64,000 nucleotides of DNA from an uncultured delta proteobacterium (GTDB lineage: Bacteria; Desulfobacterota; Binatia; Binatales; Binataceae): the NCBI GenBank assembly GCA_963782535.1, contig CAWAKE010000009.1, positions 246,222-310,221 on the forward strand, given 5' to 3'. Position numbers and translations under genes: made by a program. Positions 3,560 through 62,094 of this stretch are shown here, one piece after another (the first letter of the stretch is position 1; every line of letters begins with the position of its first letter). Under the pieces are notes generated by a model. The model was not told where the DNA came from. It ran no database searches and saw nothing but the letters and a program-made list of their open reading frames with translations.

Positions 3560-4402
3560 ATGAAATTCGGACTGTTCGGCATCAATATGGGTCCCTGTGC
3601 GATTCCGGCGACCGCCGCCGCAGCCGCCCGCGCCGCCGAAGCCGCCGGCTTCGAGAGTGTATGGACGGGCGAGCATATCGTATTGCCCGAACCGCAGGCG
3701 CCGCCCTCGCCAGTGCCCGCAATCACCCCCTTCATCGATACCACCGTCGCCCTGGGCTTCATCGCCGCCCATACCACGAAGCTGCGCCTCGGCACCGGAA
3801 TTATCATCCTGCCCCAGCGCAATCCGGTGGTGCTGGCCAAGGAACTGGCCTCGGTCGACGTCCTTTCGAACGGGCGCCTCACCTTCGGCATCGGGATCGG
3901 CTACCTCAAGGCCGAATTCGACGCAATCGGCGCGCCCTTCGATCACAAGGGACCCCGCACAGAGGAGTTCCTCGCCGCCATGATCGCACTGTGGTCGATG
4001 GAAAAGCCGGAATATCGCGGCCGCTTCGTCTCCTTCGGCGGGGTCAACGCGATGCCCCGTCCGGTTCAGAAGCCGCATCCGGAAATCGTCTTCGGCGGCA
4101 ATACCACGGACGCGTACGGCCGCGCGGCGCGGCTGGCTCAGGGATGGTTCGGGTTTGCGCTCGACGTTGACGCCACGGTCAAGAGTATCGAAGGGCTGCG
4201 CGCGGCCTGCAAGGCGGCCGGACGGCGCTTCGAAGACCTCGAAATCAGCGTCACTCCGCGCGGCAAGGTCGATCGCGACGGCGCCAAACGCTTTGCCGAG
4301 GCCGGCGTCCATCGCCTGATCCTGCTCCACCGGGCCAACGACGAGCGCGGCCTGATGGACTTCATCGGCGAGACCGGTCGCGAGCTGATAGGCAAGGTCT
4401 GA
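3560..4402 (+). CDS. LLM-class F420/flavin-dependent oxidoreductase
   Basis: MKFGLFGINMGP start (typical luciferase-like TIM barrel); SVWTGEHIVLP..LGTGIIILPQRNPVVLAKELASVDVLSNGRLTFGIGIGY. The track ORF starts earlier at 3503. The ATG at 3560 fits the conserved N-terminus. Confidence 0.8.
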   Translation: MKFGLFGINMGPCAIPATAAAAARAAEAAGFESVWTGEHIVLPEPQAPPSPVPAITPFIDTTVALGFIAAHTTKLRLGTGIIILPQRNPVVLAKELASVDVLSNGRLTFGIGIGYLKAEFDAIGAPFDHKGPRTEEFLAAMIALWSMEKPEYRGRFVSFGGVNAMPRPVQKPHPEIVFGGNTTDAYGRAARLAQGWFGFALDVDATVKSIEGLRAACKAAGRRFEDLEISVTPRGKVDRDGAKRFAEAGVHRLILLHRANDERGLMDFIGETGRELIGKV

Positions 4403-5019
4403 TTGCCCAAACCCCGCGCCGCCGCCGAACTCATTTCGAGGCCGCGGCGTGTGCCGATGCGGCACCAACGCATCGCCGATGTTGCGCCGATGCGTCATCT
4501 GTCGCTGATCCAAACCGCCGGCCCTCAAATCGAGTGAATTGGCCGGCGCGGCCCCGGCGCGGGTCGAGCATCGGGATAGCGGCAGACGAAGCCGCCGGAC
4601 AAGTTGCGATCGATCTGAATCAGCATCGCCCGATCTCGTCAAATCCAATGTCGATGGGGCTCGGTCATGAAAGTAAGAATTACAAATTACCGTCCGATTG
4701 TCGCAAAATAGGATACTCTAGCGACACTGAGCAGAAGTTAGGTAACCGACGAAGATTGTAGTGAATCTGCAATTCCGGACGCTTAATCATTGCAAGGTTG
4801 AAACGAGAGGTGACCAATCCTGCACAGCCACGGCGAGCATCTTCAGGCCACAATAGTGGCGAATGGCAAATTCTTGGCGCTGAATTAATGGCAATTTTGA
4901 ACGCTACCGCCCAGATATGCTCAATGCGGGGGACTTATGAGTTCCGGCACGTCAATTGCGTAGAGAAGGGCATAGTCCATCAGTGGGCGTCCAAGGAAAG
5001 CAGGGAGGTCGTTCGCCAA

Positions 5020-5223
5020 ATGAAAACAGACAACAGCCGGGTAATGACCGTCAAGGAATTGTCCGACTACCTCAAAGTTCACCCTTCGACGGTTTATCGT
5101 CAACTCAAGCGCGGACAGTTGCCGGCGTTCAAGGTCGGTAGCGACTGGCGCTTTAACGTCGAGTCGATCGACCGCTGGCGCCTCGAGCAGGACAGCTTCG
5201 GCGCCCTCGGCGAGAATTCCTGA
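5020..5223 (+). CDS. excisionase-family helix-turn-helix DNA-binding protein (HTH_17-like)
   Basis: MTVKELSDYLKVHPSTVYRQLKRGQLPAFKVGSDWRFNVESIDRW is a textbook excisionase/MerR-like HTH. AGGGAGG sits 8 nt upstream of the ATG at 5020. The longer track ORF (from 4798) runs through an AT-rich non-coding-looking stretch. Confidence 0.6.
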   Translation: MKTDNSRVMTVKELSDYLKVHPSTVYRQLKRGQLPAFKVGSDWRFNVESIDRWRLEQDSFGALGENS

Positions 5224-5256
5224 TTTACACCCCCGTCCCGCAGGGAGGGTGACGCC

Positions 5257-8232: not shown

Positions 8233-8561
8233 GGGGTCCTCCGCGTGATGGAGTCCTCTGCGTGCTGTATCGATAGCCTCAATTGATGCGCGTGGGGCTG
8301 GGTTAAGCAAGTCCCTGGCGGATATTGGCAAGAATGGGCGATGGCGAGCGGCTGGGAGGTTTGCTGCCGTAACCATTAGGGTGGCCGCGCGTCTGTAGGG
8401 AACGTCTCGCCGAAAGGCGGTGAGATTGGCATCGCCATTGCTCTATTGCTTGAGGCGATTAGAAAATCAGGGATTTTGGGTAACTTTTGGGCGACTCCGA
8501 TGTACCAAATCGTGCAGATAGCGCAGATGGGTTTTCTTCCGTCCAGCGCCGTGGGGTCTGA

Positions 8562-9710
8562 ATGAGCGAGAAATCCGAGCGCGACTTGCGCCTCGACTTC
8601 TGTCGCGGCCTCGCGCTAATCGTCATATTCATCGATCACGTGCCGGGTAACCCGCTCGCTGATTGGACGCTGCACAACTTTTCATTTTGTGACGCGGCCG
8701 AAATCTTCGTCCTGATCTCCGGAATAGCGGCATATCTGGCCTACGGATCGCGGCTGTCCCGCGTCGGTTTTGGGGCATGCGCTAAGGCGGCCGGTCGCAA
8801 TTGCTTGAGAATATACGTGACCCATCTGATGCTGATTGCGGTAATTGCCGGATCCATGATCTGGGTCGCCAGCCAATTCCCCGCGACCGACTACATTGCC
8901 TCGCTGAAGCTGCAATGGTTTGTGGAAGATCCCAAGCGCGCAATCTGGGCCGCGATGACGCTGTCTTACCTGCCGCGCTTGATGGATATTCTGCCGATGT
9001 ATATTCTATTTTTGATTTTCGCGCCGGTGTTGATCGTGTTGGTCAAGCGCGACTATCGGATAGCGTTACTGGTGTCGGCGGTAGTCTATGCGTTGACGTG
9101 GGGATTCAGCTGGAATTTGAGCGCCGGTCCGCCTGAGCGCCATTGGTACTTCGACCCGTTCGCCTGGCAGTTCCTCTATACCGTCGGCATCACGGTGAGC
9201 CATTTGAGCCGCAACCAACCGGACACGCTGCCGTGGCGGCGCGGGTGGCTGTGGGCGGCGATCGCATTTCTGGCCGTCACCGCGATCATAACGTGGCCGC
9301 TAAACGAGATGGGGATGACGGAGCTGGCGCCGCTTTCATACATCTGGCCGGCCAATAAAACCTTCCTTGCTCCGCTCCGCGTGCTCAACGTGCTGGCGCT
9401 GCTGTATGTCTTTGCTTACTGCGTTTCGCCGCGGGCGCCATGGCTTAAAAGGCGCCTCGCCGGGCTCTGCATCTCCTGCGGACGCCATTCGCTGACGGTC
9501 TATGGATTTGGCATGGTGCTGAGCTGTGTCGGCTATGTTGCGATCGAGGAGACGGCGTCCAAAGGGGCGATGAAATTTGCCGTGAACGTGATCGGCATCG
9601 CGATCCTGGTGCTGACCGCCGTGCTACTCGACCGCCGCAACGGGTTCAAGCGCGAGGCGCTTCGCGTGCCAGCGTTAGGGATGCCGACGAAGAGCAGCGC
9701 TGTCGCCTAG
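8562..9710 (+). CDS. OpgC-domain integral membrane protein (acyl/succinyl-transferase family 3-like)
   Basis: LDFCRGLALIVIFIDHVPGN opening typical of OpgC, ~10 predicted TM segments, 382 aa. Confidence 0.7.
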   Translation: MSEKSERDLRLDFCRGLALIVIFIDHVPGNPLADWTLHNFSFCDAAEIFVLISGIAAYLAYGSRLSRVGFGACAKAAGRNCLRIYVTHLMLIAVIAGSMIWVASQFPATDYIASLKLQWFVEDPKRAIWAAMTLSYLPRLMDILPMYILFLIFAPVLIVLVKRDYRIALLVSAVVYALTWGFSWNLSAGPPERHWYFDPFAWQFLYTVGITVSHLSRNQPDTLPWRRGWLWAAIAFLAVTAIITWPLNEMGMTELAPLSYIWPANKTFLAPLRVLNVLALLYVFAYCVSPRAPWLKRRLAGLCISCGRHSLTVYGFGMVLSCVGYVAIEETASKGAMKFAVNVIGIAILVLTAVLLDRRNGFKREALRVPALGMPTKSSAVA

Positions 9711-10187
9711 GCGGCGGCTGAAAAAAGTCCTTTAACGTCTGCGCCCTCGTGCTTGTCTTTTCCGATACCGGAGAGAAGTTCGAGCAAGCTGCCGTTGTCC
9801 ATGCAGGTTCTCGAAAGCGACGCCTGACCGATCGTCTAGTCGCATTTTTGCGGATTCTCGACACTCTGCCGGGGAAGCAACAGCGGGCACGGCGGATCGG
9901 TGCAACCTCAGTTCCGTTCCAGAGTCCCGTTCCAGCGAGGTTGTCGGCCGCTCGTGCGCGGGTGCCGGTGAATTGAAATTCAGCGGGCAGCTGTTTTCAG
10001 CGAGTGGCCCCTGCGCTTGTCCGCGGTCCCCCGATCATCCGGCAACGCAAGCATGGGCAATGACGTAGTGCATGCTGCTCAACCGATTGTAGGCGGATAC
10101 TTTAGCCGCTGGCGCCAACTCTCTCATCGGGGCATCGCGATGGGCTATTGTGCGGGCGCGAGCAGCACCATAAAAATCTGGAATCGT

Positions 10188-10272
10188 GCCGGGGTGGTGA
10201 AATGGCAGACACAGAGGACTTAAAATCCTCTGGAGCGTAAGCTCCGTGCGGGTTCGAGTCCCGCCCCCGGCA
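10188..10272 (+). tRNA. tRNA-Leu (anticodon TAA)
   Basis: GCCGGGG acceptor stem pairs with CCCCGGC, discriminator A, D-loop GGTGAAATGGCAGAC. Anticodon stem GAGGA/TCCTC with loop CTTAAAA (anticodon TAA), long variable arm TGGAGCGTAAGCTCCGT. T-arm GCGGGTTCGAGTCCCGC. CCA not encoded. Confidence 0.85.
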
Positions 10273-10455
10273 TTCGAAATCGAGATATTTTTCTTCGTAG
10301 AAGCGGTTAAACAAGGCGACGATTGAGCGGCTGACAGGGATGCTTGGTACCCGTCGGCCTGCGTAAACGCTGATGCTCTGATCCAGTGGGCGAAGAGTAT
10401 GCTCGCGGATTAAGGTGCTTCGAGAATCACGTCTATCTTGTCGGCTCGCTAATGC

Positions 10456-11511
10456 TTGTCGGCCATCTCATGCAGCGATAAAGCTCAAACGATTATGAAG
10501 CAGCAATACTGGGAAGTTGTCCAAGCGATGCCGGCCGCCGAGATGACTGAGCGCATGCGGCGGTTCGAGGACCTCGGAATTTACGGGGTGTGGGCACCGC
10601 AACTGCACTGGCCCCCGTTCGTAACCCTGGCCGCTGCCGCGATGGCGAGCACGCGGCTGAAGCTGGGTACCGGCGTCGCGCTGGCTTTCACGCGCAGTCC
10701 GACGGAAACGGCGTTGAGCGCTCTCGACCTCGATCGGATCAGCGCAGGCAGAGCGGTGCTCGGACTCGGCACGAGCGTGCGCATGTTCAATGAACGGTTT
10801 CACGGCGTCGTCTATGGGAAGCCGGTCGCGCATCTGCGTGAAGTCGTCGAGGCAGTTCGCGCCATCATCGAACGCGGACACCAAGGCGATCTCGGGCAAA
10901 TCGATGGCACCTACCACAAGCTCGACCTGAAGGGCTTCAACACTGGCCGTAAGCCGGTGCGAGCGGCGATTCCAATTTATCTGCCCGCCCTGTTTCAAAA
11001 CACAGTGGTCCTCGCCGCGAAGATCGCAGATGGGTTGCTCGGCCATCCGCTATGGTCTCTCCAATGGATTGTCGAGCAGGCGAAGACGCTTGAGCTAGAA
11101 CTGGCCAGGGCGGGGCGTTCACGTGAGCAGTTCCATGTTAATCTGTGGAACTACGTCGCGGTGGCAAACGAACGCAAACAGGCGATCGACGATATGCGCG
11201 GAACCGTCGCATTTTATTCGAGCATCGCGCAATACGAGAAGTACTTCGCGGCGCACGGCTTTAGCGCGCAGGCTCGTGCGGTGGTTGAAGCGGCTGGGCG
11301 AAACGATTGGGCCGCAATGTTGAAAGCGGTCCCCGACGAAATGGTTACGACCTTCGCGATTGCGGGGACTGCTGACGAAGTGCGCGAGTGCGTTGATCGG
11401 ATGTGGCGGCACGCGGACTCGCTGACGCTGTCGGCACCGCAGAATTTCCTGTCGGCGGCGCGGATTGCCGAGTATCGCGAAGCGATTGTAGCGACGCTTT
11501 ACAGGACGTAG
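10456..11511 (+). CDS. LLM-class F420/flavin-dependent oxidoreductase
   Basis: 351 aa luciferase-like fold (LKLGTGVALAFTRSPTETALSALDLDRISAGRAVLGLGTS). The track ORF begins on TTG. The ATG at MKQQYW (~10495) is an alternative start. Confidence 0.8.
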   Translation: MSAISCSDKAQTIMKQQYWEVVQAMPAAEMTERMRRFEDLGIYGVWAPQLHWPPFVTLAAAAMASTRLKLGTGVALAFTRSPTETALSALDLDRISAGRAVLGLGTSVRMFNERFHGVVYGKPVAHLREVVEAVRAIIERGHQGDLGQIDGTYHKLDLKGFNTGRKPVRAAIPIYLPALFQNTVVLAAKIADGLLGHPLWSLQWIVEQAKTLELELARAGRSREQFHVNLWNYVAVANERKQAIDDMRGTVAFYSSIAQYEKYFAAHGFSAQARAVVEAAGRNDWAAMLKAVPDEMVTTFAIAGTADEVRECVDRMWRHADSLTLSAPQNFLSAARIAEYREAIVATLYRT

Positions 11512-11553: not shown

Positions 11554-12798
11554 TTGGCAGATCCTAAACTCCGCTTTGGCGCTTTCGTGGCCCCCTTCCA
11601 TCCGGTGGACGAAAATCCGACTTTGGCACTGGAGCGCGATCTCGATCTGATTCAGCTGATGGATCGGCTCGGCTACGACGAAGTCTGGATTGGGGAACAT
11701 CATTCCGGCGGTTACGAGATCATCGCCAGCCCCGAACTGTTTATCGCGACCGCCGCCGAACGCACACGTCATATCCGGCTCGGCACCGGAGTCGTTTCGC
11801 TGCCCTACCACAATCCGTTAATGGTCGCGCAGCGAATCAATCAGCTCGATCACATCACTCGCGGGCGGACGATGTTCGGCGTGGGTCCGGGTGCGCTGCC
11901 GTCGGACGCGATGATGCTGGGGATCGAAGTCGTCAAGCAGCGCGATCGCATGGACGAAGCGCTCGATGTCATCGTCCCACTTTTGCGCGGCGAGACCGTG
12001 ACTGCGCAGACCGATTGGTTCACGCTCAACAACGCGCGTCTGCATCTCAGTCCCTATACACGGCCGCGAATCGAGATGGCGGTCGCGAGCCAGGTTTCAC
12101 CCACCGGCGCACGTGCCGCCGGCAAACATGGCCTCGGGCTGCTCTCGATCGGGGCGACGACTACCGGCGGGTTCAATGCACTCGCTGCCAATTGGGAGAT
12201 TTGCGAGGAGACCGCGCGCGATAACGCAACCAGCGTCGATCGACAATTCTGGCGCGCGGTCGGGCCGGTACATGTCGCCGAGACGCGCGAGAAGGCGCGG
12301 GAGAACGTCCGCTTCGGACTCGAGAAATGGCTATATTATTTTCGTGAAGTCGCGGCGCTGGCGCTGGCTCCGGTAGGCGGCGCCGATCCGATCGACGCCG
12401 TCGTGGACAGCGGACTCGCGGTCATCGGCACTCCCGATGATTGCATCGCGCAAATCGAAAAGCTGCAAAAGCAATCCGGCGGGTTCGGGTGCTTCCTGCA
12501 GCTTGCGCACAACTGGGCGAACTGGGAGGCGACCCAGCATTCCTATGAGATGATCGCCCGTTACGTGATGCCGCATTTTCAGGGTTCGAACACCAATCGC
12601 GATCAATCGATCGAATTTGCCCGGAGCAATTACACCGATCTGGTGGGGCAGGCGAGGGTAGCGGTCGGCACTCGCGTTGCCCAATACGTCGCCGAGAAAG
12701 GCGCACAAAATATCCAGCCCGAAGTTCTGCAGGCATTCGAATCCGAGCTCCGCACAACGCAGGGTCCGGCGAAGAAAAGGGCGGGCGGAAAAGTATGA
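11554..12798 (+). CDS. LLM-class flavin monooxygenase, limonene-1,2-monooxygenase (LimB)-like
   Basis: 414 aa; RFGAFVAPFHPVDENPTLALERDLDLIQLMDRLGYDEVWIGEHHSGGYE is the characteristic N-terminus of the LimB-type LLM subfamily. TTG start per track. Confidence 0.8.
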   Translation: MADPKLRFGAFVAPFHPVDENPTLALERDLDLIQLMDRLGYDEVWIGEHHSGGYEIIASPELFIATAAERTRHIRLGTGVVSLPYHNPLMVAQRINQLDHITRGRTMFGVGPGALPSDAMMLGIEVVKQRDRMDEALDVIVPLLRGETVTAQTDWFTLNNARLHLSPYTRPRIEMAVASQVSPTGARAAGKHGLGLLSIGATTTGGFNALAANWEICEETARDNATSVDRQFWRAVGPVHVAETREKARENVRFGLEKWLYYFREVAALALAPVGGADPIDAVVDSGLAVIGTPDDCIAQIEKLQKQSGGFGCFLQLAHNWANWEATQHSYEMIARYVMPHFQGSNTNRDQSIEFARSNYTDLVGQARVAVGTRVAQYVAEKGAQNIQPEVLQAFESELRTTQGPAKKRAGGKV

Positions 12799-12958: not shown

Positions 12959-14080
12959 TCAGTATCCGCTCAGAGTGGCGACGCGCTCGCGATGGAAGGG
13001 CGGCGCGCCGAAATAGGATTCGTTGAAGCGCGCGCGCTTGAACCACAGATGCAGATCGTGGTCCCAGGTGAAGCCGATCCCGCCATGCATCAGTACCGCG
13101 CGGTCCGCGCTGCGCATGTACACCTCGCACATTCGCGCCTTTACCATTGCGGCGGCGCGCGAGGCTTCGCGAGGCAGCGCGTCGAGTGCGTGCGCGGCGT
13201 ACCATAGCAACGAACGGGCTGGTTCCGTGTCGGCGAGGATCTCGGCGGCAGCGTGCTGCAAGGCCTGGTACGAACCGATTGGCCTGCCGAATTGCTCGCG
13301 CACCTTCGAATATTCCACCGCCATCTCGAGTGCCCGCTCAGTTCCGCCGAGCGAGTCCGCAGCGATTGCGACAGAGGCGACATCGACCAGGTGATCGTAA
13401 AGACCAGCGCCGCCGCCGAGCGCCGCCTCTGCGGGAACCACAACCGCATCGAGTTCCATTGCGCAGACCCGCCGCGTCAGGTCGAGATTTTTAAGGCGGC
13501 GGATGTAGACACCCGGATTATTCCGCTCGACCAGAAAGAGACCGAGATCGCGAACGCCCGGACCCGTACGCGCCGCCACTATCACGAAGTCTGCCACATG
13601 GGCATAAGGGACAATCATCTTGGCGCCGTTCAAGACCCATGCGCTTCCGCTCTTCCGCGCTGTAGCGTTGAGGTCGCCGGGATTGATGCTGTCGTTGGCC
13701 TCGACTATCGCGACGGTCCCGAGCGCCCGTCCTTCGGCAAGCGGCGCCAGCCAGCGATCGTTGAGATCATCGGACCCGCCGCCGGCAAGCGTCGCGGCCG
13801 CAAGCACTGACGAAAACAGAAACGGTCCGGGCAGCGCCGCGTAGCCGGATTCCTCGAGCAGCACGATCATATCGAGCATCCCGAGTCCGGCGCCGCCGAA
13901 TTTTTCCGGGACGATCAGGCCGTTCCAGCCGAGGTTGGCGATCTGCTGGTAGAGGCCGTGTGGCATCCCGGCCTCGTCGCTCATGATTTCTCGCACGCGC
14001 GTGGTCGGACATTCCCTGGATAGGAAATTGCGCGCGCTGTCCTTGAGTTGCTGTTGTTCTTCGGCGAGTCCGAAATTCAT
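12959..14080 (-). CDS. acyl-CoA dehydrogenase family protein
   Basis: 373 aa; MNFGLAEEQQQL start, FGGAGLGMLD, C-terminal YQALQH..E and GGIGFT motifs. Confidence 0.85.
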   Translation of the reverse strand: MNFGLAEEQQQLKDSARNFLSRECPTTRVREIMSDEAGMPHGLYQQIANLGWNGLIVPEKFGGAGLGMLDMIVLLEESGYAALPGPFLFSSVLAAATLAGGGSDDLNDRWLAPLAEGRALGTVAIVEANDSINPGDLNATARKSGSAWVLNGAKMIVPYAHVADFVIVAARTGPGVRDLGLFLVERNNPGVYIRRLKNLDLTRRVCAMELDAVVVPAEAALGGGAGLYDHLVDVASVAIAADSLGGTERALEMAVEYSKVREQFGRPIGSYQALQHAAAEILADTEPARSLLWYAAHALDALPREASRAAAMVKARMCEVYMRSADRAVLMHGGIGFTWDHDLHLWFKRARFNESYFGAPPFHRERVATLSGY

Positions 14081-14117
14081 TCGCGATGGCCTCAGGCGCG
14101 GTACTGTTCGATGAACC

Positions 14118-15305
14118 TCAACGCCCCTTGGGCATCTTGAGGCCGCGTTCTGCGATGATATTTTTCTGGATATGCGAGGTGCCGCCGCCGATCACGAGAC
14201 CGAGCGAGAACATCCATTCATAGGGCCAGAAGCCGCGATCCAACGCGTATTCCTCGTTGCGCGCCAACATCGAATAGTCGCCCATCACTTCCATCGCGGC
14301 AGTCGAGAGGTCGTGGTTGAGTTCGGTGCCGACCAGCTTGTTGACCATCGCGGCGATTCCAGGATTGCGCCCGTGAATCGAATCGGTGAGCTGTCGCAGC
14401 ATGTGGTACTTCATCGACTCGACGCGAATCTCGAGGTCGGCGAGGCGCTGGCGGAAGACCGGATCCTTTCCCAGTGGCCTGCCGTTGCGCATGACCGATC
14501 GGGCCAGCAGCTTAAGCCGGTTGAACAGCATCTGCGTGGTGACGGTCGAGCCCAGCGCGTTGCGTTCGTGAAAGAGCGTCGTGTTGGCGACCATCCAACC
14601 TTCATTAAGTTTGCCCACGAGGTTTTCGCGCGGGACGGAGACGTTGTCGAAGAAAACCTCGTTGAAGCCGCGGTCGCCGGTCATCTGCACCAGCGGCCGG
14701 ACAGTAATCCCGGGGGTCTTCATGTCGATGAGGATGTAGGAGATGCCGCGATGCTTCGGCGCCTCGGGATCGGTACGGACCAGGCAGAACATCCAGTCGG
14801 AGTAGTGCGCGCCGGAAGTCCAGATTTTCTGGCCGTTGACGACGAATTCGTCGCCGACGATTTCAGCGCGCGTGCGCAGCGAGGCGAGGTCGGAACCCGA
14901 GCCCGGCTCGGAATAGCCCTGGCACCAAATTTCCTCGCCGCTCAGAATTTTCGGCAGGTAGCGGCGCTTCTGATCTTCGGTACCCCAGGTGATCAAGGTC
15001 GGCCCGAGCAATGGGATACCGCCGCCGACCGGTCCGGGTGCGCGCGCCCGCACCATCTCCTCGTTGACGATCGACTGTCGCACCGGGTCCATCGCCTGTC
15101 CGCCGTACTCCTTGGGCCAGGACAGTGCGAGGTATCCCTCTTCGTGCATTCGGCGATGCCAGACCTTCATCTTTTCGAGCGTGGTCTTTTCCGCATGTGC
15201 GCGGTTATCCGCACCGCGAAGTCCGCTCTTTGGCAGGTTCTCTTCGAGCCAATCGCGAACTTCCTTCCGAAAGCTCGCCTCTTCAGCAGTGTAATTCAGG
15301 TCCAT
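14118..15305 (-). CDS. acyl-CoA dehydrogenase family protein
   Basis: Internal start MDLNYTAEEASFRKEV (typical ACAD N-terminus) at 15305. Rest of the protein has the ACAD middle beta-barrel and C-terminal helical domain (CQGYSEPGSGSDLASL, IGGGTSHIQKNIIAERGL). The 98-aa upstream extension in the track ORF is low-complexity. Confidence 0.8.
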   Translation of the reverse strand: MDLNYTAEEASFRKEVRDWLEENLPKSGLRGADNRAHAEKTTLEKMKVWHRRMHEEGYLALSWPKEYGGQAMDPVRQSIVNEEMVRARAPGPVGGGIPLLGPTLITWGTEDQKRRYLPKILSGEEIWCQGYSEPGSGSDLASLRTRAEIVGDEFVVNGQKIWTSGAHYSDWMFCLVRTDPEAPKHRGISYILIDMKTPGITVRPLVQMTGDRGFNEVFFDNVSVPRENLVGKLNEGWMVANTTLFHERNALGSTVTTQMLFNRLKLLARSVMRNGRPLGKDPVFRQRLADLEIRVESMKYHMLRQLTDSIHGRNPGIAAMVNKLVGTELNHDLSTAAMEVMGDYSMLARNEEYALDRGFWPYEWMFSLGLVIGGGTSHIQKNIIAERGLKMPKGR

Positions 15306-15546
15306 GTCGCGACCATCTCGCCGGCGTTGCCTGGGGACGCGGTCAATCAGCGTCGATTCAACATACTCAAAATCGACCGATGCTACCAAACCAGACAACG
15401 GCCTCGTCCGCGAGCGGATCTGCTTCGGCGATATTCGTCCAATCGCCTTGAAATATCCCGCGCAGTTGGCTAACGCTCGTGGCCAAGCACCAGACAGGTA
15501 TCTGAATATATGCGTGCTGCGCCCACGGCCAAGGAGTTTGCCCCCA

Positions 15547-17370
<1,824 letters not shown>

Positions 17371-17410
17371 CGAAGCGCTGCCGTGGACTTAACGGTTTGA
17401 ACAAAAGCGG

Positions 17411-17444: not shown

Positions 17445-17458
17445 CACTGCCGCGCGTC

Positions 17459-50728: not shown

Positions 50729-50759
50729 GCGATGACGATCAAGGGATAGCCGGCGTTAG

Positions 50760-51932
50760 GGAGCCTCTGCACAGGTCGTCATACAGCGGCAGTTCGACAT
50801 AGTAATGAGGATTATGAGGAGGAACGGCAGCAGCGCGCTGGGGTGATCGCTGCTGAGAAGCCATCAGGAGCATTGGTTGCCTCTGGTTCTTGTTCACAAC
50901 CCACACCAGGCCCCGGCTGGGAGCAACCGATGCCGGAGTTGGTAGAGATTGGCCAGCGCGAACATGGTTTCGGCCCGAGCCAGATTCTTGGCCAGCCCGC
51001 GATATCTAACCTTGCTGAAGCCCCACAACTGCTTGAGTACGCGGAAGGCATGCTCGCCGCAAGCGCGGGTGCGCGAACGCACCCGGTTGATCATCCGCCA
51101 GCGCTTGCTCAACGGCCGCTGCGCGGTAGGACGGCGATTGATCCGATAATGTATTCCCCGCGATTCAAGGAAGCTGCGGTCATCTTCCTTCCAATACGCC
51201 TGGTCGCCGAACACCTCGCGCTCGTACCCGTGCAAAAGCTCCGGCAGTTGGGTGACATCGGCGACCGCGGCGTCGGTCGCGGTTACGCTGTGCACGATGC
51301 CACGCTGGTCAGCCCCGATGTGCAGTTTCATCCCGAAGTGCCAGTTCTGGCCCTTACGAGTCTGCTTCATCTCGGGGTCGCGCGTCCCACTGGCGTTCTT
51401 GGTGGAACTCGGCGCCGCGATGATGGTCGCGTCCACAATCGTCCCCGAGCGCAGCAACAGGCCGCGGGTCTCGAGCAGACCGCCGATCGCGGCGAAGATT
51501 GCCTTGGTCAAATTGTGCTTCTCGAGCAGATGACGAAAACGCAGAATCGTGGTCTCATCCGGCACCGTGTCCTCGCCCAGCTCCACCTTGGCAAACCGAC
51601 GCATCGACTCACTGTCGTAGATCGCGTCCTCGGCCTGCGGGTCGGAGAGATTGAACCATTGTTGCAGGAAGTAGATGCGCAGCATCTTCTCCAGCCCCAG
51701 TGGCTGGCGCCCGTTGCCGGCTTTGGGGTAATGAGGCTCGATCAGGCGCAAAAGCCGCGCCCACGGAATCACCGCATCCATCTCGCCCAGGAATCGCTCG
51801 CGCCGGGTAACTTTGCCTTTCCCATTCCATGCCATCGATGCGAACGTCCGCTGATTCCCCATCACCGCACCTCCACTCCTGCCGCTCCCACTTATGATTT
51901 ATACCAAACCGAAACACTTGTGCAGAGGTTCC
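50760..51932 (-). mobile_element. IS5-family insertion sequence (IS5 group), intact, with 4-bp TTAG target-site duplication
   Basis: Imperfect terminal inverted repeats GGAGCCTCTGCACAGGTCGT (left, from ~50760) and GGAACCTCTGCACAAGTGTT (right, reverse complement, ending ~51932), 16 of 20 identical. Flanked by TTAG at 50756-50759 and 51933-51936. Encloses one transposase ORF. Confidence 0.8.
50894..51865 (-). CDS. IS5-family DDE transposase
   Basis: 323 aa with the IS5 signature KQTRKGQNWHFGMKLHIGADQRGIVHSVTATDAAVADVTQ...GDQAYW (DDE triad region). Confidence 0.9.
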   Translation of the reverse strand: MMGNQRTFASMAWNGKGKVTRRERFLGEMDAVIPWARLLRLIEPHYPKAGNGRQPLGLEKMLRIYFLQQWFNLSDPQAEDAIYDSESMRRFAKVELGEDTVPDETTILRFRHLLEKHNLTKAIFAAIGGLLETRGLLLRSGTIVDATIIAAPSSTKNASGTRDPEMKQTRKGQNWHFGMKLHIGADQRGIVHSVTATDAAVADVTQLPELLHGYEREVFGDQAYWKEDDRSFLESRGIHYRINRRPTAQRPLSKRWRMINRVRSRTRACGEHAFRVLKQLWGFSKVRYRGLAKNLARAETMFALANLYQLRHRLLPAGAWCGL

Positions 51933-51943
51933 TTAGTGATTGA

Positions 51944-53506
51944 CTAGGAGTCCGTCCGAGAAATTTCGCCGGTTAAGTTGATCTCCGGATTGGAGCGATT
52001 GGCTATTGATGATGCCGGTCGCCCCAGGATCCTGCGAAGCGCCGGCTGGTCGGCTGGCGACTACAAAGAGGTGCGCGTTTTGCTGCGGTATTTCTCGTGA
52101 CCGCCTGGATGACGGTTACGCATTGCAGAGCCGGTGCAACTTCAAAATGTTGTGGGTGAGACAGACCAGCGCCCACTCGCCCCGGACTTTAGCCAAGCCG
52201 CGCAAAAGAAAGCGGCGAAACCCGCGGGCCTCTTTGATCTGGCCGAAGACCGGCTCCACGATCGTTTTCCGTGTCACATAGATTGCCCGCCCCACCTTAG
52301 TCTGAAGCTTGCGTTTCATGCGGTCGACCCGCGTCGCATTGCGCGGTAACGGTCCGCGCGAGCAGGGCTGGCGGTATTCGTCATGCTTCTGCTTGCCAGT
52401 CGCGATATAGCAATCGATCGGGTCTCCAGACTGACCGAGAGCCGCCAGATACGCGAGGTTCTTCTCCGAGCAATAGCCACTGTCGGCCACGAGGCCGGTG
52501 GGTCGCTGTCCGCTCTGTTGCTCGATCACCTGGACCATCGGTTCGATTTGCTGTTTATCGTTGGCTGCCGGCGTCACGCTCTGCCCCACGATTAACTGCA
52601 ACACCGGCTCCACTGCCGCCTGCGCATTGTAGCCTTGCACCAGACCGTCGCTGCCCTGCATCAGGCGCGACTCCGGGTCGGTGAAATTGTATTGATCTTT
52701 GTCCGCGGGCTTCGCCGATTGCACTTCTGCGCGCGGCTTTCCGGCCTTCTCCGCCGACTGCCGCGCCCGCTCTTCCAGCGCCCGTTGCGCCGCGCGAATC
52801 TTCCTTAGCCGGCTCTCGCGCCGCTGCAACTCTGCGGGTAGCTCGTCGCCCCGCCGATCGGCCCCGTAGTGCGCGTCTTCGGCGGCGTCCACCGCCTCGG
52901 CCTGGGCCAGCAGTTCCCGGACCTCTGCGCGCAGTTGCCGTTGCCGCTCCTGCATCCGGCCATAGCTCATCGCTTTGTGCTTGCTGGCGTTGGCTTTCAG
53001 CTTGGTGCCGTCCAACGCCACCCGCCCCAGTTTCAGCGCTCCCGCTTCCAGCGCGATCTTCAGCACCTCTTCAAACAGCCCGGCCAGCGTCGCCAGATGG
53101 AGCTTGCGAAAATCTGCGATGGTACGGAAGTTCGGCGCGTTGCCCGCCGCCAGCACGCGAAACCCCACGTCCTCGATTAAACGCCGCTCGATGCGCCGCG
53201 AGCTAAATACCCCCACGCAATACCCATACACCAGCACCTTGGTCATCATCCGCGGATCGTAGGGCGGCTGCCCGCGTTGCTCGTCCCCATACGCCGCATC
53301 CAGCGCCGATAGGTTCAGATTGTCGACCACATCGCTGACGAAGTAGACCAGATGATTCTCGGGCAACCATTCACGCAGGCTCGGGGGAAGCAGAAACTCT
53401 TGATCCGGATGGTACGGTCGGTAGCTCTTACCCATGCCTAATTATCTACTACTCACACCCCGTTTTCTTCCTCAGTCAAATAACTATTTCTCGGACACGC
53501 TCCTAG
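51944..53506 (-). mobile_element. IS1182-family insertion sequence
   Basis: 21-bp imperfect IRs CTAGGAGTCCGTCCGAGAAAT (51944-51964) and CTAGGAGCGTGTCCGAGAAAT (reverse complement of 53486-53506), 18 of 21 identical. Encloses one 439-aa transposase gene. Begins 7 bp from the IS5 right-hand TSD. Confidence 0.7.
52116..53435 (-). CDS. IS1182-family transposase
   Basis: MGKSYRPYHPDQEFLLPPSLREWLPENHLVYFVSD N-terminus characteristic of IS1182-family transposases. Coiled-coil middle and C-terminal DDE domain (DSGYCSEKNL). Confidence 0.85.
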   Translation of the reverse strand: MGKSYRPYHPDQEFLLPPSLREWLPENHLVYFVSDVVDNLNLSALDAAYGDEQRGQPPYDPRMMTKVLVYGYCVGVFSSRRIERRLIEDVGFRVLAAGNAPNFRTIADFRKLHLATLAGLFEEVLKIALEAGALKLGRVALDGTKLKANASKHKAMSYGRMQERQRQLRAEVRELLAQAEAVDAAEDAHYGADRRGDELPAELQRRESRLRKIRAAQRALEERARQSAEKAGKPRAEVQSAKPADKDQYNFTDPESRLMQGSDGLVQGYNAQAAVEPVLQLIVGQSVTPAANDKQQIEPMVQVIEQQSGQRPTGLVADSGYCSEKNLAYLAALGQSGDPIDCYIATGKQKHDEYRQPCSRGPLPRNATRVDRMKRKLQTKVGRAIYVTRKTIVEPVFGQIKEARGFRRFLLRGLAKVRGEWALVCLTHNILKLHRLCNA

Positions 53507-53594: not shown

Positions 53595-54713
53595 TCAGGC
53601 GGCCACATGAGCCGTCATCGTGAGATCCGCGGGCTCCTGCAAGGGCTCGGTCTTCCAGCTCTTGACTTCGGGCATCACGTGTTTGACGAAGCATTTCAAG
53701 TTTCGCTCGGCTTCGTCGTATGGCATGCCGGCGTAGCTGAAGTTGAGCATGAAGCCGTTCGCGTCGATGGTCTCGCGGATCGTAGAGAGCTTCTCGATCA
53801 CCTGGCCCGGGGTCCCCCACGGCATCAATTTCGCAAAGTCGGCGGCCGCACCATCGATTCCGTGCTTAGCGATAAACTTGCCGACCTGACTATAGAATTC
53901 ATAACCCTTCTGACTGCCGAATTTGGACGAGGTCATTTCATAATGTTTAATCACCGTCCGGTATTGTGCGGATAGCCACTTCATCGCCTGCTCTTCGGCG
54001 CGGTCCTTGTTCTCATCGACAAACACGAAGCCTCCGCTCAGCGGTTTCGGCGCCGGTGTGGCTCCGTTAACTTCGCGCCACACGCGATGGTAGTTTTCGA
54101 AATCGACCTTTACGGCCTCCCACGGCTTCTGGGGAATGACCAGCAGACCGACGCCAAGCTTGGCCATGATCGGCATCGATTCTGGCGATACCGCGGCGGC
54201 ATAGGTGCGGCCTTTGAAGGACTTAAAAGGAAAGGGCCGAATTTCGCGGCGCGGCTGCTTGGTGTAGGCGCCGCCTTCCATGTAACCGGTTTCGAGGGCT
54301 CGCGTGATCAGCTGTGCATATTCGACGAAGAGATTCCGCCCTTCGTTTTGATCGAGGCGAAAGCCATCGTACTCGATTGGCGCAAGTCCGCGGCCGATCC
54401 CGAAGAGAAAGCGGCCGTCTGATACATGGTCGAGCATTGAGGCCTGCTCGGCGACACGAATCGGGTCATGCCAGGGGAGGACCACGACCATCGAGCCGAG
54501 CTTCACATGCTTGGTTCGCCCTGCCATGTAAGTCAGAAATTGAACGGGATCGGGACACATTGTGTAATCATCAAAATGATGTTCAATCGACCAGACGGAA
54601 TCGAAACCCAAGGGCTCGGCCATCTCGGCGAGTCGGATTTCATTGCGCCAGACCTCGCGGTCGGAGAGTTGATTATTGGGGTTTTGAAAGACTAATCCAT
54701 AACCGACGTGCAT
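53595..54713 (-). CDS. LLM-class flavin-dependent oxidoreductase
   Basis: Trimmed to MHVGYGLVFQNP; FDSVWSIEHHFDDYTMCPDPVQFL, KLGSMVVVLPWHDPIRVAEQASMLDHVSDGRFLFGIGRG. Confidence 0.8.
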   Translation of the reverse strand: MHVGYGLVFQNPNNQLSDREVWRNEIRLAEMAEPLGFDSVWSIEHHFDDYTMCPDPVQFLTYMAGRTKHVKLGSMVVVLPWHDPIRVAEQASMLDHVSDGRFLFGIGRGLAPIEYDGFRLDQNEGRNLFVEYAQLITRALETGYMEGGAYTKQPRREIRPFPFKSFKGRTYAAAVSPESMPIMAKLGVGLLVIPQKPWEAVKVDFENYHRVWREVNGATPAPKPLSGGFVFVDENKDRAEEQAMKWLSAQYRTVIKHYEMTSSKFGSQKGYEFYSQVGKFIAKHGIDGAAADFAKLMPWGTPGQVIEKLSTIRETIDANGFMLNFSYAGMPYDEAERNLKCFVKHVMPEVKSWKTEPLQEPADLTMTAHVAA

Positions 54714-54798
54714 AGTAGCCTCCTCGGGGGCAGAATTTTCCACGAAAGTTGACCGCACTCGCCACCGACAAATCTCTCAGGTTTTTATCGTCGCCATA

Positions 54799-55656
54799 TC
54801 AGAAACGGGCCTTCGGTACCGGAAGTCCCGCGATTTCCGAGCGCGCACGAAAGACGGTGCCCTTGAGATCGCGATTCTCAGTATTGTTTGCGGTAACCAC
54901 ATAGAGATCGCACATATCCGGACCGCCAAACGCGAGGCTCGTCACGGTTCGCGCTGGGATCTTGATTCGTTGGTCGAGCGTGCCGTTGCTTTTGAAGCGG
55001 ACTACTTCACCGGGACCGGCGACGACCGCAACCCAGACCCCGCCTTCCGCGTCAATCGTCAATCCATCCGGCATACCCTCGGGCAGCCGCGCAAATACGC
55101 GGCGATCACTGACGGTACGGTCCGGACGTACGTCATGCACCCAAATCGCGCGCGTGGTTGAATCGCTATGATAAAGCAGCTTGCGATCGCGGCTGAATCC
55201 AAGGCCATTAGTCACTTCCACGCCTTCCCACAATTTGGTGACTTTTCCCGGCGGATCGATCCGGAAAAGTGAACCGGGCGGAGGGGTGCTCTTGAAGTCG
55301 AACTGGTTAATGTCGCAGCCGAAGGTTCCACTCCATATACTACCTTGGTCGTCGACAGTTAGGTCATTCATGCCGAAGAGTGGTTTTCCCTCCCACTGCG
55401 CAAACAAATCGGTGATGCGTCCGCTTTTCTCATCCCAATGCGCCAGTGTCGCTCCGGTGACGATCAATCCGCCCGAAGCGTTCAAGGCGATACCGCCCAC
55501 GGACTTGCGTCCCGGTATCAGAGTTTCAATCGCGCCATCGGGACTGCGCCGGAAAACGCCACCACCGCGTATGTCGCTATAGTAAAGGCGATTTTGCTCA
55601 TCGGTCCGCGGTCCTTCGAGTAGGCCGTAGCCGGTTGCCAAGGTTTCGAATTGCAT
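54799..55656 (-). CDS. SMP-30/gluconolactonase/LRE-family six-bladed beta-propeller hydrolase
   Basis: 285 aa. EGP..D...LYYSD opening, repeated ..DG.L.. blades, PDGLTIDAEGGVWVA. Confidence 0.8.
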   Translation of the reverse strand: MQFETLATGYGLLEGPRTDEQNRLYYSDIRGGGVFRRSPDGAIETLIPGRKSVGGIALNASGGLIVTGATLAHWDEKSGRITDLFAQWEGKPLFGMNDLTVDDQGSIWSGTFGCDINQFDFKSTPPPGSLFRIDPPGKVTKLWEGVEVTNGLGFSRDRKLLYHSDSTTRAIWVHDVRPDRTVSDRRVFARLPEGMPDGLTIDAEGGVWVAVVAGPGEVVRFKSNGTLDQRIKIPARTVTSLAFGGPDMCDLYVVTANNTENRDLKGTVFRARSEIAGLPVPKARF

Positions 55657-60370: not shown

Positions 60371-60528
60371 GGCGATCTCCTTTCATGCCGACTCTGGCGC
60401 GGTGGCAGGCGAGGGCTTAGAAAAGTGGGTTTGTTTTGTGAGAAAATAATTTTGCACTTCGCCGACGATCCGGCAACCAGCCGATAACCTGTATCGGCGA
60501 CCGCGGCATCCCGGCAAGCTATCGCATC

Positions 60529-60831
60529 ATGGACAGCTTCGGCTCGCACTCCTTCCAGTGGGTAAACGCCGCGGGCGAAGCGGTCCCGGTGAAATACCAT
60601 TTCAAGTTCGAACAGGGGATCGCAACTCCGCCCGCCGGGGAGGCCGCGCGACTGGCCGGCGCGCTTTATCGATTGATGAACGAGGCCGAAAAACAGCGGC
60701 TGACCGCAAATACTGAGGACCGTCTTGGGCGGGTGAGCAAGGACGAGATAGTTGAGCGGCCGATCATGAATTTCCGCAAGGCCGATCCCGATTATGGTGA
60801 AAGTGTGGGGACGGCGGTGGCGGCGAAGTGA
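60529..60831 (+). pseudogene. catalase remnant (5' half missing, internal in-frame deletion)
   Basis: FGSHSFQWVNAAGEAVPVKYHFKFEQGI matches the catalase core segment (FGSHTFK.VN..G.....KFH.K..QG). ..ALYRLMNEAEKQRLTANT...IMNFRKADPDYGESV matches the catalase C-terminal helical region. These normally lie ~200 aa apart but are contiguous here. Nothing catalase-like lies upstream of 60529. Confidence 0.65.
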
Positions 60832-61044
60832 GCCGCGTGTTAGCCGACGCGCGTCATGCGGCAGACGACCGGCGATCGCACGGCACGATTCGGGTCACCC
60901 CGGCGACATCGCTTGACGCGGACGCCACGCGCGGGCCAAGTTAAAATGACTTGGTGACTAATGGGTCAAGGTCCCACTAGTCGTTTTGAGCGATGAGGTA
61001 AGCGTCGAACTCGCGAGCGCAAAGCTGCGCTGGAATGCTAGTCT

Positions 61045-62094
61045 ATGAAAGTCACTTTCGCGGTTAGTATCGACCCGGGCGGGCCACTTATCAGTCGCGC
61101 TGATGTTGACCGCTACTTCGACCTGGTGAAGATGGCTGAAGACTACGGCGCAGTAGCGATCGGCACGTACGATTCGGCCTTTATCGGCGGCGACGCTTTC
61201 GTCAGGGCGACCCTGATCGCGCAAGCTTCGTCACGCGCTCGAGTGGGCTTGCGGCCGACCAATCCAATCACGCGCGAGCCTCAAGTGATGGCGTCGTTTC
61301 TGGCGTCGATCGACAGCCTCACGGACGGACGCGCGTTCATGGATATAGCGAGCGGCGACAGCGCCGTGCTCAATATTGGCTATAAAATCGCGTCGCGTGC
61401 ACGTATCGAAGAGTACATAACCTGCGTACGCGATTTGCTGGCGAAAGGAGAAGCCACTTATCGCAACCGTCCGCAGCGGGTTCGCTGGAGCGGCACCGCG
61501 GTGCGCAATCGAGTGCCGATTTCGATCTGCGCCGAAGGACCCAAAATGCTGCATCTGGCCGGGCGAGTCGGCGACGGCGTGATAGCCGGGACCGGGCTTT
61601 CCCCGGAGGTGATAGCGGATACGATTGCGAGAGTCGAGGCTGGCGCGCGTGCGGCCGAACGCGACCCGGCGGAGGTCGATATCTGGTTCACGACGCGAAC
61701 CTCGCTGCATGAGGATCGTGATCGCGCGATCGAGAATGTAAAGGCGTCGGTGTCGTCGATACTCAATCACTCGATGCGCTACAGCCTGGAGGGCAAGTGC
61801 GTACCGCCCGATTTGAGTTCCAAAATACAGGCCTATGTCGATGGTTATGTACTTTACGATCACGTATTGCAGGCGGGGCAGAATCCGCGGCGGATGGATG
61901 AACTCGGACTGACCGATTATGCGATTCGGCGTTTTGCGCTGGCCGGGAACGCGAGCGACTGGATATCGCGTATCGAAGAAGTTGCACAAGCGGGCGCTTT
62001 TCAGTTGTGGGTAAGCCCGGGAAGGGGCCGGCTCGAACGCCAGTTGCATTACATGCGGATTCTGGGCGGTGAGGTAATGGCGCATTTTGTCTGA
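61045..62094 (+). CDS. LLM-class F420-dependent oxidoreductase
   Basis: 349 aa; MKVTFAVSIDPGGP.., VAIGTYDSAFIGGDAF, ICAEGPKMLHLAGRVGDGVI typical of F420-type (MER-like) luciferase-like reductases. Confidence 0.75.
   Translation: MKVTFAVSIDPGGPLISRADVDRYFDLVKMAEDYGAVAIGTYDSAFIGGDAFVRATLIAQASSRARVGLRPTNPITREPQVMASFLASIDSLTDGRAFMDIASGDSAVLNIGYKIASRARIEEYITCVRDLLAKGEATYRNRPQRVRWSGTAVRNRVPISICAEGPKMLHLAGRVGDGVIAGTGLSPEVIADTIARVEAGARAAERDPAEVDIWFTTRTSLHEDRDRAIENVKASVSSILNHSMRYSLEGKCVPPDLSSKIQAYVDGYVLYDHVLQAGQNPRRMDELGLTDYAIRRFALAGNASDWISRIEEVAQAGAFQLWVSPGRGRLERQLHYMRILGGEVMAHFV

Follow-up and report, generated by a model that had tools for sequence, protein, structure and literature searches.

Nine genes for luciferase-like flavin/deazaflavin oxidoreductases (LLMs), members of the luciferase-like TIM-barrel superfamily, lie in a 64,000-nucleotide stretch of contig CAWAKE010000009.1 (hereafter the window), from an uncultured bacterium of the Binataceae. 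In the reading that we favor, to which we give a probability of about 0.68, these are nine genuine, anciently diverged and independent enzymes encoded in at least seven units, not the parts of one machine, and they belong to an expansion of the family across Candidatus Binatia. The high density of these genes would then stem from expansion and scattering throughout the lineage, and would reflect neither local duplication nor an actinobacterial trait. Eight of the nine would sit in a rearranged mosaic of oxidative catabolic genes that bears insertion sequence (IS) elements.

Nine diverged genes in two length classes

Membership in the family was judged by the Pfam model PF00296 (Bac_luciferase), which has a gathering score of 27.9 bits. 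All nine open reading frames (ORFs) matched this model with 118-211 bits (E 1e-34 to 1e-62), bearing out the nine genes that an earlier, sequence-only reading of the window had proposed. A hidden Markov model trained on the nine sequences recovered exactly these nine from the six-frame translation of the window, with no tenth copy or fragment. The genes are as follows.

LLM1: 3560-4402, plus strand, 280 aa; PF00296 178 bits; TIGR03619 family, predicted F420-dependent
LLM2: 10456-11511, plus strand, 351 aa; PF00296 178 bits; Mer-like F420-type, under curated cut-offs
LLM3: 11554-12798, plus strand, 414 aa; PF00296 156 bits; FMN-type monooxygenase-like, weak assignment
LLM4: 25244-26575, minus strand, 443 aa; PF00296 119 bits; FMN-type by nearest sequences and folds, fitting no curated subfamily model
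LLM5: 26927-27892, plus strand, 321 aa; PF00296 180 bits; Mer-like F420-type, under cut-offs
LLM6: 29444-30520, minus strand, 358 aa; PF00296 142 bits; 3,6-diketocamphane-monooxygenase-like type II Baeyer-Villiger enzyme, FMN two-component
LLM7: 30845-31729, plus strand, 294 aa; PF00296 178 bits; TIGR03619 family, predicted F420-dependent
LLM8: 53595-54758, minus strand, 387 aa, or 372 aa from the ATG at 54713; PF00296 211 bits; LuxA-like FMN-type
LLM9: 61045-62094, plus strand, 349 aa; PF00296 129 bits; Mer/Fgd-like F420-type, under cut-offs

The gene starts first proposed hold for the plus-strand genes but not for those at 25244, 29444 and 53595, which lie on the minus strand, so that the low coordinate is the stop end. 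A minus-strand ORF at 3488-4648 was considered as the first LLM and rejected, as it has no family match; the real gene is on the plus strand with its ATG at 3560. The 504-aa ORF of LLM4 begins too early, its orthologs being 441-445 aa long, and a 443-aa model was adopted. The length of LLM6 is that of the gene called on Logan contig L001. As had been claimed, the proteins form two length classes, a short one (LLM1, 2, 5, 7 and 9; 280-351 aa) and a long one (LLM3, 4, 6 and 8; 358-443 aa), and these classes track the likely cofactor type.

No two of the nine share more than 36% identity. The closest pair, LLM1 and LLM7 (35.6%), is separated by 27 kb, followed by LLM3 and LLM6 (28.9% over 360 aa) and LLM2 and LLM5 (27%); the adjacent pairs (LLM2-LLM3, LLM4-LLM5 and LLM6-LLM7) are 23-35% identical over partial alignments. 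Because all pairs are at or below 36%, the nine represent ancient subfamilies and not local or recent duplicates, and the lineage-specific duplication raised by the sequence-only reading was not borne out.

Close relatives of most of the nine were found in other genomes of the same lineage. LLM4 has homologs of 71-94% identity in ~80 metagenome-assembled genomes (MAGs) labelled Candidatus Binatia/Binataceae or, under an older name, 'delta proteobacterium', often with two per MAG. Orthologs of LLM1 (72-91% identity) occur on 14 metagenome contigs, and the best identities in Binatia-type DNA are 66% for LLM5, 69% for LLM7 and 76% for LLM9. Homologs of LLM8 (72-82%) lie at most 10 kb from LLM4 homologs in 11 Binatia loci. 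Those of LLM6 (61-87%) occur in Binatia and other phyla, the ones at 66-69% including Gammaproteobacteria and Nitrospinae labels. LLM2 and LLM3 were without a close counterpart among the limited DNA that was sampled. Two further genes of the window code for an outer-membrane Alginate_exp porin and a c-type cytochrome. Judged from the LLM4 homologs in ~80 Binatia MAGs and from the outer-membrane porin, the host is a member of Candidatus Binatia/Binataceae, a diderm soil lineage, and not an actinobacterium.

In many Binatia loci the LLM4 ortholog is adjoined by one or two LLM4-like paralogs (55-57%) or by a 459-aa LLM (L015, 15777-18500; L016, 15491-18239; L041-L059, ~8435-9811). Tandem arrays of the LLM4 subfamily therefore exist elsewhere in the lineage, but not in the window. 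The records of some MAGs in which Binatia-type genes for LLM4 or LLM6 occur (71-88% identity) bear the labels Enterobacteriaceae, Bryobacteraceae, Acidobacteria or Thermodesulfobacteriota (L081, L108 (CAYTVL01), L062, L011, L029 and L053); these contigs are probably mislabelled or mis-binned.

Cofactor class

Membership in the F420 class was tested by a score over the curated cut-off of an F420-specific NCBIfam LLM model (TIGR03619, TIGR03617, TIGR03564, TIGR03842 and others). LLM1 (237.4 bits) and LLM7 (271.5 bits) passed the TIGR03619 cut-off of 166.9 bits, and hence the nine do not all score as FMN-dependent SsuD/LuxA-type enzymes. The F420 signatures that had been attributed to the short class are thus supported: LLM1 and LLM7 carry them over a cut-off, whereas LLM2, LLM5 and LLM9 have F420-like matches that fall under every cut-off. 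The best NCBIfam match of LLM2 was TIGR03617 (194 bits against a cut-off of 278), and its next matches were all F420 families; that of LLM5 was TIGR03564 (127 bits against 234), with all of its top 13 matches in F420 families; and that of LLM9 was TIGR03842 (131 bits against 295), followed by Mer models at 120 and 117 bits. FMN families reached at most 45 bits on LLM2 and LLM5.

Comparison with solved structures pointed the same way for these three proteins. In phmmer searches of the PDB, six of the eight matches of LLM2, including all strong ones, were Mer (best 82 bits), the matches of LLM5 were restricted to Mer or putative F420 oxidoreductases, and those of LLM9 to Mer, Fgd and fHMAD. On the Mer equivalog models TIGR03555 and NF002619 (cut-offs 348.7 and 276 bits), LLM2 scored 126 and 125 bits, LLM5 95 and 114, and LLM9 117 and 120, all under the cut-offs. 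By these scores the three are Mer-like in fold and clade but are not Mer orthologs. Likewise, no Fgd ortholog was found among the nine, the best being LLM9 with 46 bits against an equivalog cut-off of 420. F420-dependent LLMs form one clade that includes the Mer-type reductases (Mascotti et al., PMC6279831). Since the PDB matches of LLM2, LLM5 and LLM9 fall almost entirely within this clade, reported to be monophyletic, an F420 assignment is the most economical one. Neither Mascotti et al. 2018 nor Mascotti et al. 2021 gives sequence motifs that decide between F420 and FMN, and therefore the classification rests on profiles and nearest structures.

Among the long proteins, LLM6 aligned with 3,6-diketocamphane 1,6-monooxygenase (3,6-DKCMO; PDB 4uwm) over residues 1-354 of 358 (209 bits, E 1.3e-60), and LLM8 matched the homodimeric luciferase 8cbb (129 bits, E 2.5e-36) and LuxA (109 bits, E 2.5e-30), both over its full length. 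For LLM3 the PDB matches were RslO1 (7bip; 89 bits), 3,6-DKCMO (76 bits, partial) and LuxA (65 bits), and the best NCBIfam match was the MsuO8-type (MsnO8) model, at 94 bits against 167. LLM4 weakly matched luciferase and SsuD/MsuD in the PDB (64 bits), and no NCBIfam family exceeded 62 bits. An AlphaFold model of LLM4 (AF2, shallow alignment; pTM 0.73) is of low confidence (pLDDT 66.7), and its Foldseek search against the PDB served only to rank FMN against F420 neighbors; the top 33 were all FMN enzymes and the first F420 enzyme stood at rank 34. No LadA/NtaA/SsuD-type protein is present among the nine (cut-offs 279.7 bits for TIGR03860 and 518.2 bits for TIGR03565), the best TIGR03860 scores being 60 bits for LLM1 and 57 bits for LLM7. 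The flavin-monooxygenase-like character previously claimed for the long class is thus supported, by the DKCMO-like LLM6 and the LuxA-like LLM8, although LLM3 and LLM4 are weakly assignable. The LimB-like character claimed with it has only an indirect link, through the match of LLM6 to DKCMO, since Landry et al. (PMC5395668) grouped LimB with type II Baeyer-Villiger DKCMO-like enzymes.

From these comparisons, F420-type hydride transfer of the Mer/TIGR03619 kind is the most likely role of LLM1, LLM2, LLM5, LLM7 and LLM9, whereas LLM3, LLM4, LLM6 and LLM8 most likely each serve as the oxygenase component of a two-component FMN-dependent class C monooxygenase. The assignment of class is firm for LLM1, LLM6, LLM7 and LLM8, moderate for LLM2, LLM5 and LLM9, and weak for LLM3 and LLM4. 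The analysis itself shows that the nine belong to the family, how far they have diverged, which taxon and gene context they come from, and that partner genes are missing from the window; we infer the cofactor of those proteins that score under curated cut-offs, and likewise the substrates and the availability of F420. The short proteins would transfer hydride directly between F420(H2) and the substrate, with F420H2/F420 supplied from elsewhere in the genome. In the long proteins, FMNH2 from a separately encoded NAD(P)H:flavin reductase would give rise to a flavin C4a-(hydro)peroxide and thence to oxygen insertion. LLM6 would act as a Baeyer-Villiger enzyme that forms lactones, and LLM8 may be coupled to an adjacent lactonase-family protein.

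Density and gene neighborhood

Nine LLMs in 64 kb amount to 0.14 per kb. The genome of M. smegmatis is ~7 Mb in size. It encodes 45 predicted F420-dependent LLMs (PMC8498797), or ~0.006 per kb if a genome of ~7 Mb is assumed, and at that rate ~0.4 LLM would be expected in 62.7 kb. The LLM density of the window is ~20 times this F420-LLM average, and that of its F420-type LLMs alone ~12 times. The density is therefore far beyond chance for a typical or even an LLM-rich genome. A comparison within the lineage gave a smaller excess. In the 1,335 kb that flank LLM4 homologs in 80 Binatia loci there are 93 further LLMs (0.07 per kb), about half the density of the window, and at 4-10 kb from the LLM4 anchor the rate is 0.03-0.07 per kb. 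At Binatia flank rates the probability of at least eight more LLMs in 62.7 kb is 0.08 to 0.015. A 21.3-kb span of the window holds up to six LLMs, against a maximum of four in the 80 loci. Two other Binatia contigs, annotated with Pfam, carry three LLMs per 21 kb beside SMC, FtsY and TyrRS genes. The lineage as a whole is thus rich in the LLM family, and the window is a dense spot within it. The density called unusual by the sequence-only reading does lie far over the M. smegmatis rate, but the frame 'even for Actinobacteria' was wrong, as the host belongs to Binatia. LLM-dense neighborhoods recur across that group.

When 84 neighboring LLMs from the Binatia loci were classified with NCBIfam at E<=1e-45, 13 matched NtaA/DmoA, 13 TIGR03560, five TIGR03619, three the MupA-type model (TIGR04020) and two TIGR03617. 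The best E values in these loci were 2e-110 for TIGR03617 and 2e-77 for TIGR03619. Curated F420 families therefore recur in the lineage.

At least seven transcription units carry the nine LLMs. LLM1 belongs to a conserved housekeeping block (Lpd-RNaseHII-bPH-LLM1-HTH17-RNase II) whose gene order is kept on the 14 metagenome contigs; the far side of RNase II is not conserved in relatives. From the tRNA-Leu gene onward, the genes form a mosaic of short units that occupy both strands. The G+C content of the window is ~60% throughout (range 0.56-0.64). The other features of the window, including acyl-CoA dehydrogenases (ACADs), a Baeyer-Villiger monooxygenase (BVMO) and enoyl-CoA hydratases (ECHs), are listed here.

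10187-10273, plus strand: tRNA-Leu(UAA) (ARAGORN; Rfam RF00005, 59.5 bits), 183 bp 5' of LLM2
12959-25087: catabolic context A (Pfam), with three ACADs, a PtlE-like BVMO, ECH, HMGL-like lyase, beta-hydroxyacid dehydrogenase, MBL hydrolase, CMD and Rieske alpha/beta
12959-15599, minus strand: two adjacent ACADs
~15610-17370, plus strand: PtlE-like type I BVMO (NCBIfam PtlE, 806 bits against a cut-off of 1100)
23294-25087, plus strand: Rieske oxygenase alpha/beta
27919-28479 and 28524-29336, plus strand: CMD and ECH of a string in which LLM5 is the first gene
35961-44707: catabolic context B (Pfam/NCBIfam), with a minus-strand string of SDR, Rieske alpha/beta, amidohydrolase_2 and LigB, then PFK, a limonene-epoxide-hydrolase-fold protein and an HsaA-like oxygenase
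38074-39851, minus strand: second Rieske ring-hydroxylating oxygenase alpha/beta pair
42953-43330, plus strand: limonene-epoxide-hydrolase-fold protein (Pfam)
43478-44707, plus strand: HsaA-like flavin monooxygenase oxygenase subunit, frameshifted (NCBIfam HsaA, 295 bits against 450, profile 74-382)
46915-50370: arsenic-resistance-like cluster of a methyltransferase (46915-47523, plus), a glyoxalase-fold protein (47682-48212, minus), an ArsR-type regulator (48594-48974, plus) and an SBF/ACR3-family transporter (49231-50370, plus)
50757-51935 and 51944-53506: two adjacent IS elements, each with a DDE transposase (DUF772 + DDE_Tnp_1) and imperfect 20-21-nt inverted repeats
54799-55656, minus strand: SMP-30/gluconolactonase-family (SGL) gene (Pfam), with LLM8 40 bp downstream on the same strand
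62175-62690: c-type cytochrome (Pfam), after LLM9

LLM2 and LLM3 form a tandem with a 42-bp spacer. The tRNA-Leu(UAA) gene lies in a 746-bp gap between an OpgC-like gene and LLM2, close to where synteny with relatives ends. A genomic island at this tRNA was considered and rejected, as the 3' end of the tRNA has no second copy in the window and neither an att-like repeat nor an integrase is present there. Beyond LLM3, the second of the paired ACADs has a 493-aa ORF that probably begins ~100 codons too early, or it would overlap the BVMO ORF. In its arrangement the pair resembles heteromeric ACADs that degrade the side chains of steroids and terpenoids. The BVMO is followed by the third ACAD, ECH and the HMGL-like lyase; next come beta-hydroxyacid dehydrogenase, MBL hydrolase, CMD and Rieske alpha/beta, which form one string.

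LLM4 stands alone as a unit, and LLM6 and LLM7 are divergent. A BNR-MMPL unit separates the latter two from the minus-strand SDR-Rieske-amidohydrolase-LigB string. The porin gene is next to the limonene-epoxide-hydrolase-fold and HsaA-like genes. In the HsaA-like gene the N-terminal ~70 residues are in one frame and the rest in another, with the switch at a G6 run (43692-43697), either a homopolymer sequencing error or a real pseudogene. In the arsenic-resistance-like cluster, the SAM methyltransferase gene at 46915-47523 overlaps a longer opposite-strand ORF without a family match. A bile-acid reading of the SBF transporter was set aside in favor of arsenic resistance on account of the ArsR, glyoxalase and methyltransferase genes alongside. 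The G+C content dips to 0.555 in the IS stretch beside LLM8. Between LLM8 and LLM9 lie ECH, beta-lactamase-family esterase, NHL and MetE-like genes. Upstream of LLM9, a 100-aa ORF (60529-60831, plus strand) joins part of the catalase core (profile 185-229 of 383) to the catalase-related C-terminal domain, and looks like a remnant of a deleted catalase gene. An MFS transporter ORF at 63324-63959 (minus strand, 211 aa) covers about half of the MFS_1 profile (16-186 of 347) and is possibly truncated or frameshifted.

Conserved synteny was sought for the LLM4-LLM7 cluster in the 80 Binatia loci and none was found, even at 93% LLM4 identity. In two relatives the LLM6 ortholog adjoins hisB-hisD-aroA-prmC-prfA-rpmE. 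LLM4 orthologs of 93% identity and LLM6 orthologs have other neighbors, and the genes of the window are therefore not arranged as a conserved set of operons. The mix of catabolic genes suggests breakdown of alicyclic, terpenoid-like and aromatic compounds, because ACADs, ECHs, a type I BVMO, two Rieske oxygenases, LigB, an epoxide-hydrolase-fold protein and an HsaA-like oxygenase are nearby.

Partner genes were searched for among the ~60 window ORFs that were scanned with Pfam or NCBIfam. These ORFs included no F420 biosynthesis gene, no Fno and no Fgd, no Flavin_Reduct, FMN_red, nitroreductase or Fre-like domain that would indicate a flavin reductase, and no ferredoxin or ferredoxin reductase, so that the sequence-only reading was correct in seeing neither F420 genes nor a flavin reductase here. 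An HIBDH-like protein (20904-21878) was rejected as Fno, since its match to PF03807 (F420_oxidored) is weak (38 bits) and it is a beta-hydroxyacid dehydrogenase by NAD_binding_2/NAD_binding_11 (147 bits). The electron-supply partners of the LLMs, the HsaA-like oxygenase and both Rieske oxygenases must therefore lie elsewhere. Unlinked flavin reductases are common; the CAM-plasmid DKCMOs are an example, the DKCMO gene there, like that of LLM6, having no adjacent flavin reductase gene. In another genome, a Fer2 + FAD_binding_6/NAD_binding_1 pair lies 4 kb from an LLM4 ortholog. This lineage may rely heavily on F420.

Alternative explanations and relation to known systems

One alternative is that most of the LLMs catalyze successive steps of one co-regulated pathway, encoded by a dedicated catabolic island for a camphor-, limonene- or steroid-like alicyclic substrate. 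The co-location of the DKCMO-like LLM6, the PtlE-like type I BVMO and the HsaA-like oxygenase would suit such an island, as would the limonene-epoxide-hydrolase-fold protein, the lactonase beside LLM8, the three ACADs and the three ECHs. The six LLMs in 21.3 kb exceed the number in any of the 80 Binatia loci, and a tRNA-Leu gene and IS elements are typical of islands. However, the genes occupy both strands in many short units that are broken by PFK, the arsenic-resistance-like cluster and two IS elements, and no att repeat, integrase or regulator common to the units was found. Furthermore, no LLM pair has conserved synteny in relatives, and orthologs of LLM1 and LLM6 occur in housekeeping contexts elsewhere. 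We consider a single island improbable. It is still harder to credit, to the point of being very nearly discounted, that the nine arose by recent lineage-specific tandem duplication or were brought together by horizontal transfer from an actinobacterium. The adjacency of LLM2-LLM3, LLM4-LLM5 and LLM6-LLM7, and the positions of IS elements next to LLM8 and of the tRNA gene next to LLM2, are what such an origin might leave. However, the adjacent pairs are just 23-35% identical and the best pair, LLM1-LLM7 at 35.6%, is 27 kb apart. Homologs of LLM1, 4, 5, 7, 8 and 9 in Binatia or related contigs reach 66-93% identity and those of LLM6, in MAGs of like kind, up to 87%, and the G+C content is even (0.56-0.64) across the window.

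A different objection concerns the cofactor. If Binatia do not make F420, the five 'F420-type' LLMs would use FMN or another cofactor, and their labels would reflect annotation transfer from actinobacterial models. The lack of an F420 biosynthesis, Fno or Fgd gene in the window is in keeping with this, as is the negative outcome of a crude motif screen that covered ~1.7 Mb of related DNA. Binatota are missing from the published F420-encoding phyla, and no paper linking the two was found. In addition, LLM2, LLM5 and LLM9 are under all curated cut-offs, and TIGR03619 gives sub-threshold scores of 62-92 bits on the clearly FMN-like LLM6 and LLM3 as well. However, LLM1 and LLM7 lie 70-105 bits over the TIGR03619 cut-off, and other Binatia loci hold the TIGR03617 and TIGR03619 matches given above. 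The negative outcome of the motif screen carries little weight, since it covered few distinct genomic regions. Selengut and Haft reportedly defined the F420 LLM families in 2010 by their co-occurrence with F420 biosynthesis, which we counted against this alternative. F420-dependent LLMs are also reported to be monophyletic (PMC6279831), and the PDB matches of LLM2, LLM5 and LLM9 are almost only to that clade. On balance, Binatia without F420 seem unlikely to us.

Several observations nevertheless weigh against the favored reading of nine independent enzymes from a lineage-wide expansion, or against the functions attached to it. Only two of the five F420-type proteins, and none of the four FMN-type proteins, score over a curated cut-off, and the LLM4 model that was used to rank its neighbors is of low confidence. 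The Binatia background rate is biased upward, because each locus was anchored on an LLM and many of the loci are orthologs of one another; loci anchored on RNase II give only ~1 non-syntenic LLM in ~80 kb, and the window may be a true hotspot. Genes for F420 biosynthesis, Fno, Fgd or a flavin reductase did not turn up in the Binatia DNA inspected, although the F420 biosynthesis and Fno patterns run over the ~1.7 Mb carry little weight for the reason just given. The search of the literature library used, which included the supplements of Murphy et al., found no paper linking Binatota or Binatia with F420 or luciferase-like genes, and Binatota is not on the list in a 2021 review of F420 distribution. 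Finally, the substrates suggested here follow from similarity at the level of families alone.

By analogy, the closest counterpart of the gene set as a whole is the expansion of the LLM family in SAR202, and that of the F420-type members is the mycobacterial repertoire of luciferase-like hydride transferases (LLHTs). Five partial genomes of SAR202 (Chloroflexota) contain 152 deeply branching luciferase-like paralogs (Landry et al. 2017, PMC5395668). Many of these were modelled on 3,6-diketocamphane monooxygenase and were read as serving the oxidation of alicyclic, recalcitrant organic matter (PMC5395668). Both SAR202 and the window combine deep-branching LLM paralogs with enoyl-CoA hydratases, dehydrogenases and ring-hydroxylating enzymes (PMC5395668). 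However, SAR202 are marine Chloroflexota and Binatia are soil diderms; in the window one of nine LLMs is clearly DKCMO-like and five of nine are of the Mer/TIGR03619 F420 type, and Binatia are known here from loci, not from genome-wide counts. The likeness to mycobacteria and other actinobacteria (Grinter and Greening 2021, PMC8498797) lies in the TIGR03619 family in the window and the TIGR03617 and TIGR03619 families in other Binatia loci, in multiple paralogs with unknown substrate, and in the lack of linked F420 supply genes. In contrast, the Binatia host is not an actinobacterium, three of the five window members are under curated cut-offs, and the F420-type density is ~12 times that of M. 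smegmatis.

Single enzymes and the phylum itself offer further parallels. LLM6 aligns over its full length with the 3,6-DKCMO of the P. putida CAM plasmid (PDB 4UWM/5AEC; E 1.3e-60), but the rest of the camphor pathway (P450cam, 2,5-DKCMO and others) was not seen in the window. Murphy et al. 2021 (PMC8262859) reported 'multiple ladA homologues' in Binatota, with no mention of F420 or of family size. Those genes belong to the same phylum and superfamily, and represent several LLM-class alkane-monooxygenase homologs per genome (PMC8262859); however, the window genes include no LadA/NtaA/SsuD-type member, true NtaA/DmoA-family members occurring in other Binatia loci. An LLM expansion in an oxidative catabolic generalist is already known from SAR202 and mycobacteria.

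These results recast what looked like an odd actinobacterial locus as a trait of a soil phylum that is uncultured and found worldwide. They also provide cofactor-class predictions for nine enzymes, a camphor-type Baeyer-Villiger candidate among them. Tentatively, and at somewhat less than even odds, we suggest that Binatia are an unrecognised F420-using phylum in which the LLM family has expanded on the scale of SAR202 or mycobacteria (perhaps one per 15-30 kb). Such an expansion would take in a lineage-typical LLM4-type subfamily of 443 aa, 70-94% conserved, with at least two copies per genome, abundant in soil metagenomes and with neither a curated model nor a close solved structure. The window would be among the densest hotspots, combining FMN oxygenases and F420 hydride transferases for the turnover of alicyclic and terpenoid compounds in soil. 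If Binatia lack F420 biosynthesis, LLM1 and LLM7 would show that curated 'F420-dependent' models over-predict outside Actinobacteria. If they encode it, the list of F420-using phyla would grow, and Binatia would be a source of new F420- and FMN-dependent biocatalysts.

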